Virus record (IMG/VR): IMGVR_UViG_2609460344_000022
Length of the DNA: 40,873 bases
Strand: one strand, 5' to 3'
DNA from: a virus
Lineage: Duplodnaviria > Heunggongvirae > Uroviricota > Caudoviricetes
Position numbers and translations under genes: made by a program. Positions 1 through 24,172 of the stretch are shown here, piece after piece (the first letter of the stretch is position 1; every line of letters begins with the position of its first letter). The notes under the pieces were generated by a model that ran no database searches, was not told where the DNA came from, and saw nothing but the letters and a program-made list of their open reading frames with translations.

Positions 1-1164
1 TTATGCTTTCTTTGCATCCTCAAAAACCTCAGGGTGGGACAAATTTGGGACATCGTCACCCAATATGTCGTCAATTTTCCTCGCGTGCTCTGTCAAATGA
101 TTAGGTGCAAGGTGTGCGTACCTACGCACCATTTCGATAGACTCCCAGCCGCCCATTTCCTGAAGTACTGACAGTGGTACACCTGACTGAATTAACCAAC
201 TGGCCCAGGTATGGCGGAGGTCATGAAAACGGAAATTTTCAATTCCTGCCCGACGACATGCTGTTAACCACGATGTGTTATAGTCCAGGCGCATCTTTCT
301 GATGCTTGGTGTCATTGTCCCGTCAGGCCTTCTGGCAGCAGTGGTATAAACAAACACCCAGCGGTGATGTTTGCCTATTTGATCACGCAACACCTTGCAG
401 GCAGTGTCATTCAGTGCGACCCCAATAGCGCGGTTTGACTTACTGTCTTCAGGGTTTACCCAGGCAACACGTCGCTGCATATCGATTTGTTGCCACTCCA
501 GATTAATAATGTTTGATCTCCTCAGGCCAGTTGCCAGTGCAAATTTAACTACAGATTTCAGGGGATCAGAACATGCATCAATGAGTCTCCTGGCTTCTTC
601 TTTTTCCAGCCATCTCACGCGTTTGTTTTTTACGGCAGGTATTTTGATTACAGGTGCTTTTTCAAGCCATTTCCAGTCTCGCTCTGCGGCGCGCAGAATA
701 GCCTTGATCATTGCCAGGTGTGTTGCTTTTGTTTGCGTGCTCACCGATTTAGGTATATAGGCTGGTGGTTCTTTCCCTTTTCTTAATGCAGCCTCCACCT
801 GCAACTTCCATCTCTCCTTTGTTTTTCGGTTATACGCTTTGCTGATAACTGAGTAGATCATTGCCTCCGATATATCCTTAATCCTTATTCCCTCGAAATG
901 CTCAATCCAGAATGCGATTCTGGATTTATCGGAATCGATGGATTTCTTGTCGGCTTTTTCCTCAAGCCATCTCAGGCAGGCTTCTTCGAAAGTGACATCT
1001 GGCATATCCCCCAGTCTGTCTACTCGCCAGAGTTCTGCTTTTCGCTTGTCGTGCAACTCCTGAGCTTGCCGCTTGTCCTTTGTGCCAAGAGACTCCTTAA
1101 TTCGCTTCCCGCCCGGGAGCGAGTACGAGGCGTACCATATTTCACCTCTGCGGAAGAGTGACAT
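1..1164 (-). CDS. int: Phage integrase (tyrosine recombinase)
   Basis: 387-aa ORF at prophage edge; C-terminal R..HxxR..Y-type catalytic region ([15 protein letters not shown]...VRRYAHL) typical of lambda-family integrases; followed upstream by xis-like gene. Confidence 0.9.
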
Positions 1165-1391
1165 TTTCTTTCCTCTGTTATGCCATCACCCGCGCTCACC
1201 TGGACAGTATGCAGCGGTGAATGAAGTGCTGCAATGCAGGCTTGCCGGGTTGTGAGATAAGGTGATCTTTTACCGGAAGAATTTTTTCGGGTTGCCTGTA
1301 GTCGGCCCGTTCGTATCCAGTTAACAGCTGTTGGCCTTGATATCTTGAGAAACTTACAGGCCTCTTTGAGGGTGATACTGTGTGAATCCAT
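1020..1391 (-). CDS. xis: Excisionase-like wHTH protein (start chosen at internal ATG 1391)
   Basis: Small basic ORF directly upstream of and overlapping int; N-terminal '[26 protein letters not shown]' resembles Xis/AlpA-type DNA-binding domain; position conserved in lambdoid phages. Confidence 0.55.
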
Positions 1392-1425
1392 ATTTTCGCC
1401 ATTAAAAACCGCCCGAAGGCGGTTG

Positions 1426-1677
1426 TCAGTTGATTGATATGCGGCGCATTTTTCGAAGGCTGGCAATATGCTTTTCCTTCTCAATTTCTGCTTTAATCAT
1501 GTGTAGTTCGTTGTGATCGATTCGCTCAAATTCTGCATTAAATGCGCTAATTGAAGCGGCTCTGGTTCTCCCATCCAGCCTGCGGAAGATTACCTGCGTC
1601 AGAGTGATTTTGCAGACTTCAACCGGATAGTTGTTGGCATCGACGAAAGACTGCCCGCGCTGGATTAGAACGAACAC
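1426..1677 (-). CDS. Hypothetical protein (int-xis to exo accessory slot)
   Basis: 83-aa ORF in the b2/ea-like region between xis and exo; no recognizable motif. Confidence 0.3.
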   Translation of the reverse strand: MFVLIQRGQSFVDANNYPVEVCKITLTQVIFRRLDGRTRAASISAFNAEFERIDHNELHMIKAEIEKEKHIASLRKMRRISIN

Positions 1678-1728
1678 CGGTAGTATTCCTTAATTGTCAT
1701 ATCATTTGCACCTCGTTGCTACTGGCTA

Positions 1729-2406
1729 TCACCATTGCTCCCCAAATACAAAACCAATTTCAGCCAGTGCCTCGTCCATTTTTTCGATGAACTCTGGCAC
1801 CATTTCGTCAAAACCAGCCATGTATTTTTCATCCCGTTCGACCACGACATAATGCAGTCCTTCACGCTTCATACGCGGGTCATAGTTGGCAAAGTACCAG
1901 GCATCTTTTCGTGTCACCCACATGCTGTACTGCACCTGGGCCATGTAAGCCGACTTTATGGCCTCGAAACCACCGAGCCGGAATTTCATGAAATCCCGGG
2001 AGGTAAACGGGCATTTCAGTTCAAGGCCGTTGCCGTCACTGCATAAACCATCGGGAGAGCAGGCGGTGCGCATACTTTCGTCGCGATAGATGATCGGGGA
2101 TTCAGTAACATTCACGCCGGAAGTGAACTCAAAGAGGGCTCTGGCGTCGTTCTCGTACTGTTTTCCCCAGGCCAGCGCTTTAGCGTTAACTTCCGGAGCC
2201 ACACCGGTGCAAACCTCAGCCAGCAGGGTGTGGAAGTAGGACATTTTCATGTCAGGCCATTTCTTTCCTGAGCGGGGTTTTGCTATCACGTTGTGAACTT
2301 CTGAAGCGGTGATGACGCCGAGCCGTAATTTGTGCCACGCATCATCCCCCTGTTCGACAGCTCTCACGTCGATCCCTGTACGTTGCAGGATAATGTCCGG
2401 TGTCAT
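1729..2406 (-). CDS. exo: Lambda-type 5'-3' exonuclease (Red alpha)
   Basis: 225-aa protein matching my recollection of lambda Exo almost residue for residue ([65 protein letters not shown]...). Confidence 0.95.
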
Positions 2407-3188
2407 GCTGCTACCTTCTGCTCTGTGACTTTCTGTTTCAGGAATCCAAGAACCTTCACAGCTTCAGCCTGTGTTAGTTCTGAAGATGTGTAAATGTTGC
2501 GGCGAAAAATCTGGGAACAGAGCGGCAACAGGTCGTCATCCCACGTTTTTTCCATGGAAGTAAGAAGGGCGTTAATTTCCGACATGGTTTCTTCGTTAAC
2601 CGGGGTGATGTCGCGTTCCGGCTGACGTTCTGTAGTATATGCAGTATTTTCGACAATACGCTCGGCTTCATCCTTGTCATAGATGCCAGCAAATCCGAAG
2701 GCCAGGCGAGCACACTGAATCATGGCTTTGTGCCGTAACATCCGTTTGGGATGCGACTGCCACGGTCCGGTGATTTCTCTGCCTTCGCGGGTTTTGAATG
2801 GTGCGCGGCGACATTCATCCATCCACTCGGTAACGCAGATCGGATGATTTCGGTCTTTGCGGTAAATCCGGCATGTACATGATTCATCGTCCTGCTCAAA
2901 GTCCATGCCATCAAACTGCTGGTTTTCATTGATGATGCGGGACCAGCCATCAACACCCACCACCGGAACGATACCGTTCTGTTTATCAGGAAAGGCGTAA
3001 ATCTCTTTCGTCCATGGATTAAGGCCGTACTGGTTAGCGACGATCAGTAGTGCGATGAACTGGGCATCGCTGGCATCACCTTTAAATGCTGTCTGGCGAA
3101 GAGTGGTAATCAGTTCCTGTGGGTCGACAGAATCCATGCCGACACGTTCAGCCAGCTTCCCTGCCAGCGTTGCGAGTGCTGTACTCAT
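2403..3188 (-). CDS. bet: Single-strand annealing protein (Red beta)
   Basis: 261-aa protein matching recalled lambda Bet ([66 protein letters not shown]...); 4-nt overlap with exo. Confidence 0.95.
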
Positions 3189-3193
3189 CCGTT

Positions 3194-3490
3194 TTATACC
3201 TCTGAATCAATATTAATTTGGTGACGGGCGATGGTTTCAGCCATGTAGCGGATGTGTTCTGCCATGCGTTCCTGAAAATCGACATCGTCATCAAATGCAC
3301 GGGAAATAGCTTTTTTGCTGGCCCCGTGACGTTGCAGATTATCGATGCATAGCGATTCAAACAGGTGTTGGGGCAGACCTTTTTCCAGGTCGTCTGCCAG
3401 CTCAGCTTCAGTTTCTTCACGGGCAATTTGCTGGTAGTGTCGTGCCCATGACTGCTCTTCAATGCGATCGGGGATAAGCCAGGCATTCAT
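3194..3490 (-). CDS. gam: RecBCD inhibitor Gam (short form)
   Basis: 98-aa protein matching the recalled C-terminal (GamS) portion of lambda Gam (...QSWARHYQQ...[21 protein letters not shown]...[12 protein letters not shown]...); sits upstream of bet as in lambda. Confidence 0.9.
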
Positions 3491-5547
3491 GATTTATCAC
3501 CTCCGAAATTTTCAAGCCTGTTGGCAATCATGATGGCGATATCAGGGATTGCTGGCGCTGTGGCTATACATGCGGGGTTGGCGCACAAACCATAGACGGC
3601 TGCAATCACGAGCTGTCTTTTCCAGTCGAGAATTTCTGGTTCTGAATCAGCCTTATCGTCGGGCGCATTGTTGCCCTGAGCATTCCGGGCAACTGCCTCG
3701 AGTTCATGAGTTGTATCAGCGGAACTTTCCAGGACATCCGCTTGTGCTGAGTTCTCTTCAGCAGATGTGCCGTTTTCTCCAAAAATTTCAGCGTAAGTTT
3801 CATCTCCTATTACCGGACCGCAGTCAGGGCAGTTGCCCCCACCAGTCTGAGCACAGACGCGGCAGGATTTTTCCAGCTCCGGTTGTGCTACTGGCTCTGG
3901 TTGTTGCTCTGCTGGTCCGTTTTGTTGCGTATCCGGGCTGTTTTGTTCCGCTTCTGGCTCATTTTGTTCCACTTTGGATTGATTCTGGTCTTCAGTGTCG
4001 CGAGTCTGGATCCCCTTCACCCACTTCGGGTCGGTTGGGTCGCTGATACCTTCAACGAATTCTCCGCGAGAAGCCGCCAGTAATTTGTCGGCATCGACTG
4101 GATTTTTTGGGGGGATGTTTTCCCTGGCTTTATTGAGTTCCTCCCTCAGTTCCTGGTATTTCGTTTCTACAGATGAGACATTTTCCAGTGATTGCGTGTC
4201 CTCATTATGTTTAACTGGAATTTCTTCCACTGATTCAGGCGCTGCCTGTTCATTAGCCATTGTGTCCGATGTTTGTTGCTTTTCTTCATCGCCATGTTTT
4301 CCTTCTGCTGTTCCGCGCTGCGGCATCGGTGCTGATGAGCGACCGCAGGCAATTTCCACGATTTCCGGATCCGGGTTAGCGTGATCGGTTTCGGTCAACA
4401 CTTTGTTGAGATATTCAGTCACGCGTGCCGGGATGGCCTCAATGCCGATTGGTGCTTCTTTCACGGAAGCCACCACAATGGCGCGGGAATAATCCAGCCC
4501 ACCGGGCATGGCGATAAATTTGTCGCGAAAAACAGAAAAGGGCGGCTTATTCTCTGACACGATTTCTTCAACGCGTTTTGCGTGTGCTGGGTGCAGGTTA
4601 TAAATATCCACATCCATTGAACGGGCCAGAACGCCGGTGGCTACATCTCGTGCGAGTGATGTCTTATCATGTTTGAATCCTTCACCACGATCGGTAATAT
4701 TTCCGCCGCCAGCGTTAGCACCGGAAGGCGTACGGGTAATGCCTGAAACATAATTTCCGTTCTGCCATTCTTTTGTCAGCAGGCCCTGATCAAGGTAGTC
4801 AGTTTTCATCCAGGTGGAAATGAACTTGTCGAATTCAGCCGGGCTGATGCGATGATTTGCAGAGTGGGGGAATGCTTTCCCTACAGATTCAGCCAGGCGG
4901 CTAAGGTGATAATTCGTCAGCTTATCCAGCTCTGGATGTGAACGCACAGCAGTAAGCAGGCTCTGAAGGTAACTATCTTCTGTGTCCATCTCCAGACGGA
5001 TCACATTATTACGTTGTTCTGGTGTGGCGTGATGCCGGTATTTTCCATCTTTATCCTTGCTAAAGAAGAAGAGGTGAAGGAAACGATGGGTAAGACTGAG
5101 AGTGGCGACGGGAATTTCACAGTCAATACAGTCATCGTCGCTGTCTGTGGATTCGATTTTCTCCGCATTACCCGGAACAGCTCCGTCTGGGTCATCGTTG
5201 CCACCGTCAGCCGTTGTGGCATCTTCACCGTTGATGTTGTCATCGGAGGGTATAGCCATCATGGTGATGCCATCGTTACCGCCTTTTTCATAGCGATTAC
5301 AGAATTCGGTATCAAACACTCCTTCCGGTGGAAGGTCATTTACGACGGGCAAATGAACGCGAACAGGTTTTTTAAAGTCATCTTCATCGTAGCCCGCATC
5401 GTCAATCGCAACAGCACCACGAGAGATTGCAATGGATAATTTTTTCGCCTCAGCCCAGTAAAAACCGCCTTTAATGCCGAGGCGTTTTCTTACCTTGTCA
5501 TTTTTTGCTTCGTAATACAGTGGGTAAACTTGTTTATCAGTGCTCAT
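3487..5547 (-). CDS. Large acidic hypothetical protein (686 aa; start trimmed to ATG 5547 with GAGG SD)
   Basis: Long ORF overlapping gam start by 4 nt (ATGA); acidic low-complexity linkers, CxxC...CxxC zinc-ribbon-like motif ([17 protein letters not shown]); upstream part of track ORF (to 5835) overlaps the preceding gene and lacks an SD. Confidence 0.6.
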
Positions 5548-18050: not shown

Positions 18051-18368
18051 TCATGATATTACCTGGATTCCGTTTTTCTCTACGACTGAAAGAAGGCGAA
18101 GAGCGGCACCTCCCGGCCGTTTTACACCACGTTCCCAGTCTGATATCAGGTTTTTACTGACGTTGAGGTATCTGGCAAAAACAGGTTGAGACAGATGCTC
18201 TCGTTCGCGCAGTGCACGGATCCTTTCCGGAGACATTACCGGCGCTGGCTGGAGACAAGTTTCATCGAATTCTCGCATAGTCTGTTTCGTTACTGCGCCG
18301 ATATCATGAAGCGATTCCATCATTTCATGTACGGATGCAAGCGCATCACTGCGGTAATTTTTACTCAT
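18051..18368 (-). CDS. HTH (XRE-type) antitoxin, HigA/MqsA-like C-terminal HTH
   Basis: 105 aa; C-terminal 'REREHLSQPVFARYLNVSKNLISDWERGVKRPGGAALRLL' resembles the antitoxin HTH pattern; start ATG overlaps stop of upstream toxin remnant. Confidence 0.6.
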   Translation of the reverse strand: MSKNYRSDALASVHEMMESLHDIGAVTKQTMREFDETCLQPAPVMSPERIRALREREHLSQPVFARYLNVSKNLISDWERGVKRPGGAALRLLSVVEKNGIQVIS

Positions 18369-18730
18369 TGGGTACCTCCGTAAACTGACCCTGTAGAATC
18401 AGTTGTGCCAGTTGTTCATCTGTTAGATTGAGTACGTGAGGAGCCCCTTCCGAAATGCACTTTCCTCAGTAGCGGTTATATTTTCACGTTCATTTTTTGC
18501 GTATGCATATACGAAAAAGGCCCTTGTGCCGACGCGATAGAAAATGATTGTGCGATAACCGCCAGATTTGCCGCCACCGACTCGTGGCAGACGTTGCTTG
18601 ATAACGCCGTTACCCAGGTTTGCTGAGATAAGCCCGTTATCAGCCTGTTTAACAATTTCGCGCAGTGATTGGTCGGATATTTTGTTTTGCGTGCAAATCG
18701 CTCAAACCAGGCGTTTTTAAAAATGCGCAT
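18361..18730 (-). pseudogene. RelE/ParE-superfamily toxin disrupted by two frameshifts
   Basis: Frame 1: MRIFKNAWFERFARK; frame 2: ...SLREIVKQADNGLISANLGNGVIKQRLPRVGGGKSGGYRTIIFYRVGTRAFFVYAYAKNERENI...; frame 3: LNLTDEQLAQLILQGQFTEVPNE*; first shift at an A-rich tract (GCACGCAAAACAAAATAT). Confidence 0.6.
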
Positions 18731-18797
18731 TTTTTGTTCCGTTATTAATGTATAACACATAGTGTTACATTGCGTAGGGATCTGCAATGCCATCAGT

Positions 18798-18908
18798 TTG
18801 ACAACGTCGCGTGTTCGGGGCTATATTCCTCACGCGCCAGCAAAACCTGGCGTCGGGATTAGCACCCCGGATATCGAAACGGTGCATAACCGCGCTGGCG
18901 GTTTTTTT
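18798..18908 (+). ncRNA. Promoter + ~75-nt structured RNA + intrinsic terminator (copy 1)
   Basis: TTGACA-N18-TATATT (18798-18827); hairpins CGCCAG-CAAAAC-CTGGCG and AACCGC-GCTG-GCGGTT followed by TTTTTTT (18888-18908). Confidence 0.45.
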
Positions 18909-19072
18909 ATGCGCTAAGCACAGTCACATTCGCGATTTATGGCGGGCTGTGTGGGGGAGCCGAAAGGCTCGCCGGATGTTTCGACCGGTAGTGCTAACCC
19001 CGCACAGTTCGCCACCACGATGATTAGCACCTGACGGTGGCGAGGTAAAAATTATCGAAACGCGAGGTCATT

Positions 19073-19738
19073 ATGGCTGTTCAAATTTCTGTCGAAAACC
19101 TTTCCCCTGTTACCTATAACCAGATCCCCGTAATTACTACTGAACTGTTGGCTCACCTTTACGGAACAAAAATCAAAAACATTTCTGATAACTTTCTGAA
19201 CAACACGACGCGATTCATGCCCGGAAAGCATTACTTTAAAATTGAAAAAAACGAATTACGCGAGTTTAAGAACAGACCCGAAACAATCGGGTTAGTTGGT
19301 AAAAATGCCCGCTCCCTCATCCTCTGGACAGAACGCGGCGCAGCCCGTCACGCAAAAATGCTCGAAACCGATCGGGCGTGGGAGGTATTCGAAAAACTGG
19401 AAGACTGCTATTTCAGCCAGGGAAAAACAGCACCAACCGAACAGCAGCCGCAGATTCAGCCACAATTCACAGCCGAAGAAATCATCCTCCTTTGCTACAT
19501 GCAGCTCTGGATGGAAAAAGCCCAGGACATCAGCAAACACCTGTATCCCATTATGAAAGAGCTGAACTCCTCATACACGAACAAGCTGTATGACATTGCG
19601 TTTGAGACCATCTACATGGTGACGAAGAACAGAGACGCGCTACTGAGGGAGGTAACACGTCTCGACATGTCAAGTTCCGTTATCCAGCGGGCCATGCCAA
19701 TGCTGAAAAGCCTGCGGGCAAGACAATTTGAATTCTGA
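19073..19738 (+). CDS. ORF6N-domain antirepressor-like protein (paralog 1)
   Basis: 221 aa; N-terminus '[20 protein letters not shown]...[21 protein letters not shown]' shared with paralog at 20657 and typical of the ORF6N antirepressor N-terminal domain. Confidence 0.6.
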   Translation: MAVQISVENLSPVTYNQIPVITTELLAHLYGTKIKNISDNFLNNTTRFMPGKHYFKIEKNELREFKNRPETIGLVGKNARSLILWTERGAARHAKMLETDRAWEVFEKLEDCYFSQGKTAPTEQQPQIQPQFTAEEIILLCYMQLWMEKAQDISKHLYPIMKELNSSYTNKLYDIAFETIYMVTKNRDALLREVTRLDMSSSVIQRAMPMLKSLRARQFEF

Positions 19739-20382: not shown

Positions 20383-20497
20383 TTGACGTGATGATTTATT
20401 CGGGGCTATATTCCTCACGCGCCAGCAAAATCTGGCGTCGGGATTGGCGTCCTGGATAGAGACCGCGACAGATACACGCCGCGAGCGTGTTTTTTAT
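20383..20497 (+). ncRNA. Promoter + ~75-nt structured RNA + intrinsic terminator (copy 2)
   Basis: TTGACG-N18-TATATT (20383-20412); hairpin CGCCAG-CAAAAT-CTGGCG; terminator ACACGC-CGCGA-GCGTGT + TTTTTTATT (20474-20499). Confidence 0.45.
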
Positions 20498-20656
20498 TGT
20501 CGTATGCACGCGCACATCTGAATTATGGTGGGCTGTGTGGGGGCGGAGAGATCCGCGCCGGTCGGTTTCCCGGTTACGCCAACCCTGCACAGTTCACCAC
20601 CAGACGATTGGCGTCGTCGGTGGTGAGTTATTAAGAAACCACTCGAGGGCGTCATT

Positions 20657-21340
20657 ATGACAACTCAAATCTCTGTTGAAACACTCTCCACGATTACTTA
20701 CAAGCAGATCCCCGTTATCACTACCGAACTTTTGGCGCACCTTTACGGCACAGAAGCTATTCGTATTCGCCAGAATCACCACGAAAACAAAGGTCGTTTC
20801 ATTGAGGAAAAACACTTCTTCAAACTTGAAGGTGAAACTTTACGTGAGTTCAAGCACAGAGTAGCTTTTAACTACTCTGTGAAAATTGCCCGTAACGTTC
20901 GCTCCCTCATCCTCTGGACAGAACGAGGCGCAGCCCGTCACGCCAAAATGCTAGAAACCGATCAGGCGTGGGATGTGTTCGAAAAACTGGAAGACTGCTA
21001 TTTCAGCCAGTGCGAGAAAAATACTGGCAAACAAGAGAAGAAGCCCAACGGGCTTTCCGCAAAAGAAACAGACAGCCTTGTATGGCTGTGGGATTATGCC
21101 AACCGCTCACAGGCATTGTTCCGTGAGTTGTATCCCGCATTAAAACTGATTCAGTCTGGCTATTCCGGCATATGCCACGACTACGGCTATGAGTTCTCGT
21201 ATATCATCGGGAGGGCGAGGGGCGTTTTAATTAATCACACGCGGGATATAGATATTTATGAGCCTGACGGGCCGACGAACCTTCTGGCATGGGAAAGGCT
21301 TAAGAACAAAGAGTTGCCGCCTTCACTGCATCGCTACTGA
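20657..21340 (+). CDS. ORF6N-domain antirepressor-like protein (paralog 2)
   Basis: 227 aa; N-terminal ~120 aa highly similar to paralog 1, C-terminus divergent. Confidence 0.6.
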
Positions 21341-23690: not shown

Positions 23691-24172
23691 TCCGTTCAAC
23701 GGGAATGTTACATACCTCACAATTAAGTCAGTTGAATGTTGTCTGCCCGGATGAGAATTTGTTAGAAAAAACTGCATGGTGAATCCCCCTGAGCGGAGGG
23801 GCGACTGGTGACGGTATAATCTCTGATTATCAAAACGAGAATGACGCGGGTTTAGTGGCACCGGGCTGAACTCACCGGGAGGCACCCGGCACCATGCAAT
23901 GGCACATAGCGCCACTCTCCAGCCCCTCTCCGGAGGGGCTTTCTTATGGACAAAAAAGCCCGCGCTGGGAGACGCGGGCGGCAAGGAATGAACAATGAAA
24001 CGTGAAGTAATATTTCAGCTGGCGAATAATACCCCATAGTAATCACTCTGCGCAACTGCGCGACCTTTTTCGAATTGCGGGCTGTAGTCTCCCTTCTGCC
24101 ATTGTCCTGTAACTTCCGGACTTCAGCCCGCTCCTTATTTTACTCACAATATTATCCCGGCCGGGAGGATTC

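Follow-up and report, generated by a model that had tools for sequence, protein, structure and literature searches.

The locus described in this work is very probably an ordinary toxin–antitoxin (TA) gene pair of a lambda-like Escherichia coli prophage, in which the toxin has been put out of action by two real single-base deletions and the antitoxin gene has remained whole. The pair lies on the minus strand of the window, that is, the whole stretch of 40,873 nucleotides analysed here (Caudoviricetes; IMG/VR record IMGVR_UViG_2609460344_000022). The sequence-only reading of this stretch had recognized a decayed RelE/ParE-like toxin next to an intact helix-turn-helix (HTH) antitoxin; the present analysis supports a more precise assignment, namely a toxin of the HigB-2 type (PF06296) with a HigA-2-like antitoxin, and a broader scope, with the toxin being inactivated recurrently across E. 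coli prophages. The features on which the argument is built are listed below in window coordinates.

18015..18036, no strand assigned: GC-rich hairpin (AAAACCCGCTTCGGCGGGTTTT) in the space where the antitoxin gene and doc converge
18051..18368, minus strand: intact gene for the HigA-2-like antitoxin, 105 aa, with an N-terminal segment of ~44 aa and a C-terminal HTH (residues 45-99)
18361..18730, minus strand: toxin pseudogene of PF06296 (HigB-2 family, RelE/ParE superfamily), 370 nt against 372 nt in the intact gene, whose product has 123 aa
18375..18379, minus strand: Shine-Dalgarno motif GGAGG, read from the sequence, 6 nt upstream of the antitoxin ATG
18423..18680, minus strand: central part of the toxin gene (residues 18-95) with a short tail read out of frame, encoding the equivalents of all four catalytic residues
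18444..18447, minus strand: lesion 2, loss of a C (GGCGG to GGGG; GGAAGGCGGCTCC to GGAAGGGGCTCC), the second frameshift, at codon 96 of 123, placed by alignment
18685..18688, minus strand: lesion 1, A5 to A4 (CGCAAAAACAAAA to CGCAAAACAAAA), shifting the frame past codon 15, placed by alignment
18753..18767, minus strand: perfect dyad TAACAC-TAT-GTGTTA, within the lone conserved block (18749-18769) in an alignment of five alleles

Three-frame translation of the minus strand between 18340 and 18800 recovers the toxin in exactly the pieces quoted in the sequence-only reading: MRIFKNAWFERFARK in frame 1, from the ATG at 18730; the central piece ...KISDQSL...GGGKSGGYRTIIFYRV...AFRK in frame 2, which carries KISDQSLREIVKQADNGLISANLGNGVIKQRLPRVGGGKSGGYRTIIFYRVGTRAFFVYAYAKNERENITATEESAFRK; and APHVLNLTDEQLAQLILQGQFTEVPNE* in frame 3, ending with the TAA stop at 18363-18361. 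Two frame changes had been claimed, the first at an A-rich tract and the second near the 3' end, and alignment to intact homologs had been proposed as the means of placing the indels. This alignment, run against the intact alleles of HCP4S3_I4, 2013C-3033 and O157, located exactly two 1-bp deletions in the window toxin gene, both where they had been suspected. The first removes one base from the A run CGCAAAA(A)CAAAATAT and the second one base from GGAAGG(C)GGCTCC, the bracketed letter being the one missing from the window. Translation from the native ATG accordingly gives 15 native residues followed by 69 out-of-frame residues up to a stop at 18476-18478. The central frame (18423-18680) contains no ATG, GTG or TTG and has no entry in the list of open reading frames (ORFs); a check of the starts used in its RefSeq annotation gave ATA and ATT. 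As the catalytic residues are thus encoded in a segment lacking any canonical start, production of active toxin is precluded. The window toxin locus offers no continuous ORF of ~110-125 aa that begins at a usable start, the gene being split over three frames; this split, together with the lack of ATG, GTG or TTG in the central frame, makes the window gene a pseudogene of the PF06296 family and not a working member of it.

The family assignment itself is firm. Over positions 18-95 of the PF06296 profile, the central fragment matches with E=3.7e-28 and 98.6 bits (cut-off 27), and the intact, 99%-identical allele matches the profile end to end, over positions 1-120 of 120, with 157.8 bits (E=1.7e-46). 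Judged by these scores, the toxin is of the PF06296, HigB-2 type and the resemblance is not a matter of chance. PF06296 is the family of Vibrio cholerae HigB-2, whose members are ribosome-dependent mRNA endonucleases encoded in toxin-before-antitoxin order (PMC11980606). The nearest solved structures are those of V. cholerae HigB-2 (Q9KMA6; PDB 5ja9 and 5ja8), to which the E. coli toxin is only distantly related (phmmer E=0.003 over 54 residues). In the phmmer alignment with 5ja9_C, the four residues of VcHigB2 found by mutagenesis to matter, R51, R64, Y82 and K84 (PMC5416850), have as their E. coli counterparts R47, R60, Y77 and K79. Ribosome-dependent A-site mRNA cleavage is established for V. 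cholerae HigB-2 only (PMC5416850, PMC11980606), and it is by homology to V. cholerae HigBA2 that we infer that the intact E. coli toxin would act as an mRNA endonuclease and would be neutralised by its antitoxin. The two modules also differ in location and state: HigBA-2 resides in the Vibrio superintegron, whereas the window module belongs to a lambda-like E. coli prophage and its toxin gene is a pseudogene. Other resources added little. NCBIfam holds no model for the toxin, PHROGs places toxin and antitoxin each in a family of unknown function, and PADLOC gave no defence-system match for the toxin and generic HTH matches only for the antitoxin. A literature search found no paper describing the present E. 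coli module.

The downstream antitoxin is intact, as had been stated, and occupies the 105-aa ORF at 18051-18368. Its HTH, at residues 48-94, is recognized by HTH_3 (32.3 bits, cut-off 23; E=1e-7) and HTH_31 (31.4 bits, cut-off 27), and among solved structures it resembles V. cholerae HigA-2 (5jaa, also 5j9i; E=7.9e-8), residues 45-99 aligning with residues 39-93. Both proteins are of the same size and have the same plan, an N-terminal segment leading into a C-terminal HTH; in the same comparison, the ~44-aa N-terminal segment of the E. coli protein showed no sequence match to residues 1-38 of VcHigA2. In VcHigA2, a disordered N-terminal segment of ~36 aa neutralises the toxin. By analogy, the N-terminal segment of the E. 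coli antitoxin would serve for neutralisation and its C-terminal HTH for autorepression. The antitoxin of E. coli MqsRA was considered as another possible relative, the MqsRA operon also being toxin-first and the HTH of the window antitoxin weakly matching MqsA models. An MqsA identity was rejected, with matches that cover the HTH part only and fall below threshold (TIGR03830, 33.5 bits against a cut-off of 61.8; PF15731, 18 bits against a cut-off of 30, E=0.003). The zinc-binding CxxC N-terminal domain of MqsA is likewise absent from the window antitoxin, which has a single Cys, and its partner toxin belongs to PF06296 and not to MqsR (PF15723).

The arrangement of the two genes is very probably that of a type II operon of the HigBA-2 kind, with the PF06296 toxin gene first and the HigA-2-like antitoxin gene second. 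The antitoxin ATG (18368-18366) overlaps the end of the old toxin frame, with its TAA at 18363-18361, in ATGAGTAA, which agrees with the overlap of antitoxin start and reconstructed toxin stop noted before. The overlap amounts to 8 nt and is identical in intact alleles, so that a closely coupled toxin-first order is seen here as well. The GGAGG at 18375-18379 would allow the antitoxin to be translated independently of the broken toxin ORF. Upstream of the toxin ATG, the five aligned alleles have strongly diverged except for the block 18749-18769, and the dyad that it contains is a candidate for the operator, together with the promoter core, of the operon and probably has this role. We propose that the antitoxin would still be made from its own ribosome-binding site and would most likely repress the operon promoter via this dyad. 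At the other end of the operon, the hairpin at 18015-18036 is probably a bidirectional terminator. A role of the antitoxin as a conserved regulator of the adjacent isrK/C4/antirepressor module was considered and rejected: O157-type loci have other upstream neighbours, and the upstream DNA diverges right past the dyad.

How the damaged gene is distributed was examined by querying 5,426 complete E. coli genomes with window positions 18000-18800 (801 bases); this collection is clonally biased, and the counts given here are of genomes and not of events. The 801 bases are 100% identical to E. coli cM8a and 99.9% identical to genomes of the O104:H4 outbreak lineage, and the window-type allele is present at ≥99% identity in 33 of the 5,426 genomes. 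Both deletions occur in 18 records of span 801 (cM8a and 17 of O104:H4 type; 99.9-100% identity) and in AST198 as well, which makes at least 19 genomes. Another ten records have span 802, indicating one deletion; the six such loci that were fetched, from ML35, FORC_069, NCCP15648, TOE17, PS2C12 and LZHX12, carry lesion 1 alone. Strain 23CRST047 is without lesion 1 and combines lesion 2 with a different deletion, delA339. Intact alleles exist alongside these: that of the pig isolate HCP4S3_I4 is 99.1% identical in nucleotide sequence (WP_077168034.1), and further uninterrupted 372-nt alleles are found in 2013C-3033 (92.5%; WP_106894428.1) and in O157:H7 and O26 (84%; WP_001217944.1). These intact alleles occupy the same locus in the same nin-region neighbourhood (hokD, ORF6N antirepressor), are 84-99% identical to the window at the nucleotide level and encode an antitoxin that is identical or one residue different; unlike them, the window gene is two bases short. 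The intact, one-deletion and two-deletion states are each linked to their own SNPs.

The order in which the two lesions arose is blurred, because lesion 2 sits on two haplotypes, one with lesion 1 and the other, in 23CRST047, without lesion 1 and with delA339, so that recombination or recurrence has to be allowed for. The only record of the phage collection to contain the module, Escherichia phage PhiR12_3 (PV340552.1, positions 4290-4973), deposited as a complete phage genome, has lesion 1 on a mosaic background, beside an intact 106-aa antitoxin allele. The presence of lesion 2 on two haplotypes and of lesion 1 in the mosaic PhiR12_3 likely reflects recombination among prophage alleles, recurrence being the other possibility. 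Since PhiR12_3 carries lesion 1, the broken toxin is not merely a trait of decaying prophages; and since this sole phage record with the module is a broken one, free phages were of no use for comparing the intact with the broken state.

Inactivation of the toxin is not confined to the window-type allele. The two-gene locus is present in 217 of the 5,426 complete genomes, always on the chromosome, with a single copy in each of the O104:H4 and cM8a records. In the O157-type allele group, a different frameshift, the gain of a G at gene position 95 (G4 to G5; codon 33), corresponds to the window place at about 18633-18637. An 82-nt probe across the G4 run has exact matches in 113 genomes of this group, and its G5 version in 37. 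The carriers of the extra G, at least 37 genomes, include O104:H21 (CFSAN002236 and 88-3493), O22:H8, O113:H21 and other Shiga toxin-producing E. coli (STEC). In the two such loci that were fetched, from CFSAN002236 and 88-3493, the O157-type antitoxin WP_000042395.1 is the same as that found beside intact toxins. There are thus at least four different toxin frameshifts (delA113, delA339, delC357 and +G95), the toxin is broken in at least 69 of the 217 carrier genomes, and none of the frameshifted loci examined has a damaged antitoxin ORF. Homologs with the same split had been named in the sequence-only reading as a sign that would point to a different gene structure. Some were found, but the mutation in them is the same one, and the 113 exact probe matches and the full-length profile match identify the unsplit 123-aa ORF as the common and ancestral form.

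Substitution patterns were compared between intact alleles and within the window-type group. Between intact alleles, dN/dS is 0.035-0.058 for the toxin and 0.01-0.045 for the antitoxin, values that indicate strong purifying selection on both genes. Within the window-type group, by contrast, the toxin has five non-synonymous SNP sites (counted in the old frame), two synonymous ones and three indels. The resulting 5:2 ratio differs from the ratio of non-synonymous to synonymous changes between intact alleles, which is ~21:64 (Fisher p=0.018), and fits the relaxed constraint expected of a toxin sequence no longer read in its old frame. The antitoxin differs between the window-type and O157-type groups by one amino acid against 23 synonymous changes; its protein (WP_000042397.1) is identical in 10 of 10 fetched loci of the window allele group, the window ORF showing synonymous differences only from these loci. 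The three variable antitoxin sites within this group, at 734, 737 and 740 of the aligned block, are all synonymous, and as they are clustered and may represent a single recombination tract, they are weak evidence for continued selection.

Taken with the distribution of the alleles, these observations are very probably explained by stepwise frameshifting of the toxin of an accessory module carried in the nin region beside hok/sok and a Doc-type toxin. Shortening of the A run from A5 to A4 past codon 15 and the deletion at codon 96 have left the toxin dead. The toxin would be expected to decay before the antitoxin, as a mutation in the antitoxin would be lethal or costly under an active toxin, whereas a mutation in the toxin would be free or even beneficial. 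After loss of the toxin, the antitoxin would then persist through lag or weak selection.

The alternative is that the antitoxin-only state is itself selected, the orphan antitoxin providing immunity or anti-addiction against HigB2-type toxins of competing phages and prophages or of host defence, or working as a transcription factor with other targets. In this case, it would be a functional counter-addiction gene kept by lambda-like prophages and not a remnant. Such roles have precedents in the literature: an anti-addiction function has been suggested for orphan antitoxins (PMC7354431), and phages use them for counter-defence (PMC11825919). Several of the observations made above also point this way: the toxin has been hit by at least four frameshifts and is broken in at least 69 of 217 carriers with the antitoxin whole in all frameshifted loci examined, the antitoxin protein is extremely conserved between allele groups (one amino acid against 23 synonymous changes), and PhiR12_3, deposited as a complete phage genome, is in the same state. 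Against this stands the consideration that toxin-first decay is to be expected even if the orphan state is not selected at all, and that in a clonal genome set the genome counts overstate the number of events. In addition, distant-mode blastn found one place per record in O104:H4 and cM8a, that is, no second HigB2-type locus at the DNA level on which the antitoxin could act, and the toxin lacks a PADLOC defence-system match. Antitoxin substitutions since the loss of the toxin are too few for a selection test. On balance, we regard selection for the orphan state as unlikely and decay of the toxin with passive or weakly selected persistence of the antitoxin as the preferred explanation.

That a full-length toxin is still expressed from the split gene, either through phase variation by reversible slippage or through two programmed -1 ribosomal frameshifts, is highly improbable. 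Both shifts needed to restore the frame are indeed in the -1 direction, and both lesions offer a run on which the P-site tRNA could re-pair (A AAA at 18688-18685 and G GGG at 18447-18444), so that rare -1 slippage is possible in principle. The two sites, however, do not conform to the canonical X XXY YYZ heptamer, a pair of independent events, each of low efficiency, would have to coincide, and the intact relatives require no recoding at all. Nearly all SNPs in the frameshifted alleles would alter the ancestral protein, a pattern that indicates loss of constraint. Phase variation, which the sequence-only reading had kept as an alternative, fits no better: runs of 4-5 bases are far shorter than those of known contingency loci, and one and the same state is seen in all ~18 O104:H4-type assemblies, constant within the clone. 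The other alternative named there, that the gene is in truth unbroken and the frameshifts stem from faulty sequencing or assembly, has a negligible chance of being right. Each lesion does lie in, or give rise to, a short run (A4 and G4) of the sort where indel errors typically occur, but the identical deletion pair recurs in 18 complete assemblies at 99.9-100% identity and in AST198, hence in at least 19 independent complete assemblies, other strains are stably one-deletion or intact with SNPs of their own, and phage PhiR12_3 carries lesion 1 too.

The surroundings of the decayed toxin gene are those of a lambda-like prophage, with int, exo/bet/gam, cI/cro/cII-like genes, replication genes, a nin region, Q, lysis genes and head and tail genes; this layout was taken from a related O104:H4 prophage and its collinearity with the window, and stx genes were absent from the window. 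Within the nin region, the TA module is flanked by a Doc/Fic-type toxin on one side and an antirepressor module on the other. The Doc/Fic-family gene, which is intact and lies at 17506-18000 on the plus strand (TIGR01550, E=1.4e-35; phrog_577, 'Doc-like toxin'), converges on the antitoxin gene and has the hairpin at 18015-18036 in common with it. It is preceded by a 59-aa ORF (17317-17496, plus strand) in the position of a Phd-type antitoxin, which falls into phrog_2208 (unknown function) and has no Pfam match. Further upstream lies a hok/sok type I module at 16783-17107 on the plus strand, with an Rfam match to sok at 16783-16957 (110 bits) and a hokD coding sequence at about 16952-17107, so that three TA modules of different types are found within 2 kb of the nin region.

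On the opposite side, two tandem modules resembling P1 immI occupy 18821-19738 and 20406-21340 on the plus strand, each comprising c4-a1b1 targets, isrK, a C4 antisense RNA and an ORF6N/P22AR antirepressor. Their Rfam matches are at 18821-19019 and 20406-20604, and their direct repeats are 1585-1590 nt apart. The first copy is provided with a promoter-like TTGACA-18-TATATT (18798-18827), divergent from the toxin promoter region; the second copy is absent from the related prophage of O104:H4 strain 2011C-3493. Downstream of the Q antiterminator region, there is also a full-length match to the small RNA STnc100 (Rfam RF02076; 165 bits) at 23746-23951 on the plus strand.

RefSeq, through its PGAP pipeline, lists the fragments of the dead toxin as ordinary toxin coding sequences with no pseudogene flag: an 85-aa 'RelE/ParE family toxin' with an ATA start in O104:H4 2011C-3493 (WP_309487867.1), a 68-aa toxin in cM8a and AST198, and a 112-aa toxin with an ATT start in ML35-type strains. 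Loci with the extra G appear in PGAP either as two toxin pieces or as one ORF extended upstream. Such start-less toxin coding sequences inflate the counts of TA systems in the O104:H4 lineage and its relatives, a matter of little weight beyond annotation hygiene.

Neither the toxin family nor the order of the genes is new, and decay of the toxin beside a retained antitoxin is likewise known; the finding is real but ordinary. That such a pattern is a recognized one, as the sequence-only reading had it, is confirmed by the degraded TA loci of other bacteria, among them a Caulobacter parE pseudogene with ParD, a Shigella yacB frameshift with YacA and orphan antitoxins of Klebsiella, which have been read either as remnants or as anti-addiction modules (PMC7354431). 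These loci resemble the one described here in having a frameshifted toxin and a retained antitoxin ORF. They involve other toxin families, however, whereas the present locus offers a series of intact, one-lesion and two-lesion states among near-identical alleles, with inactivation recurring in a second allele group. This series, together with the independent gain of a G in STEC, makes a clean small example of toxin-first decay of a TA system, and the locus could serve as a test bed for the question of whether orphan prophage antitoxins are selected.
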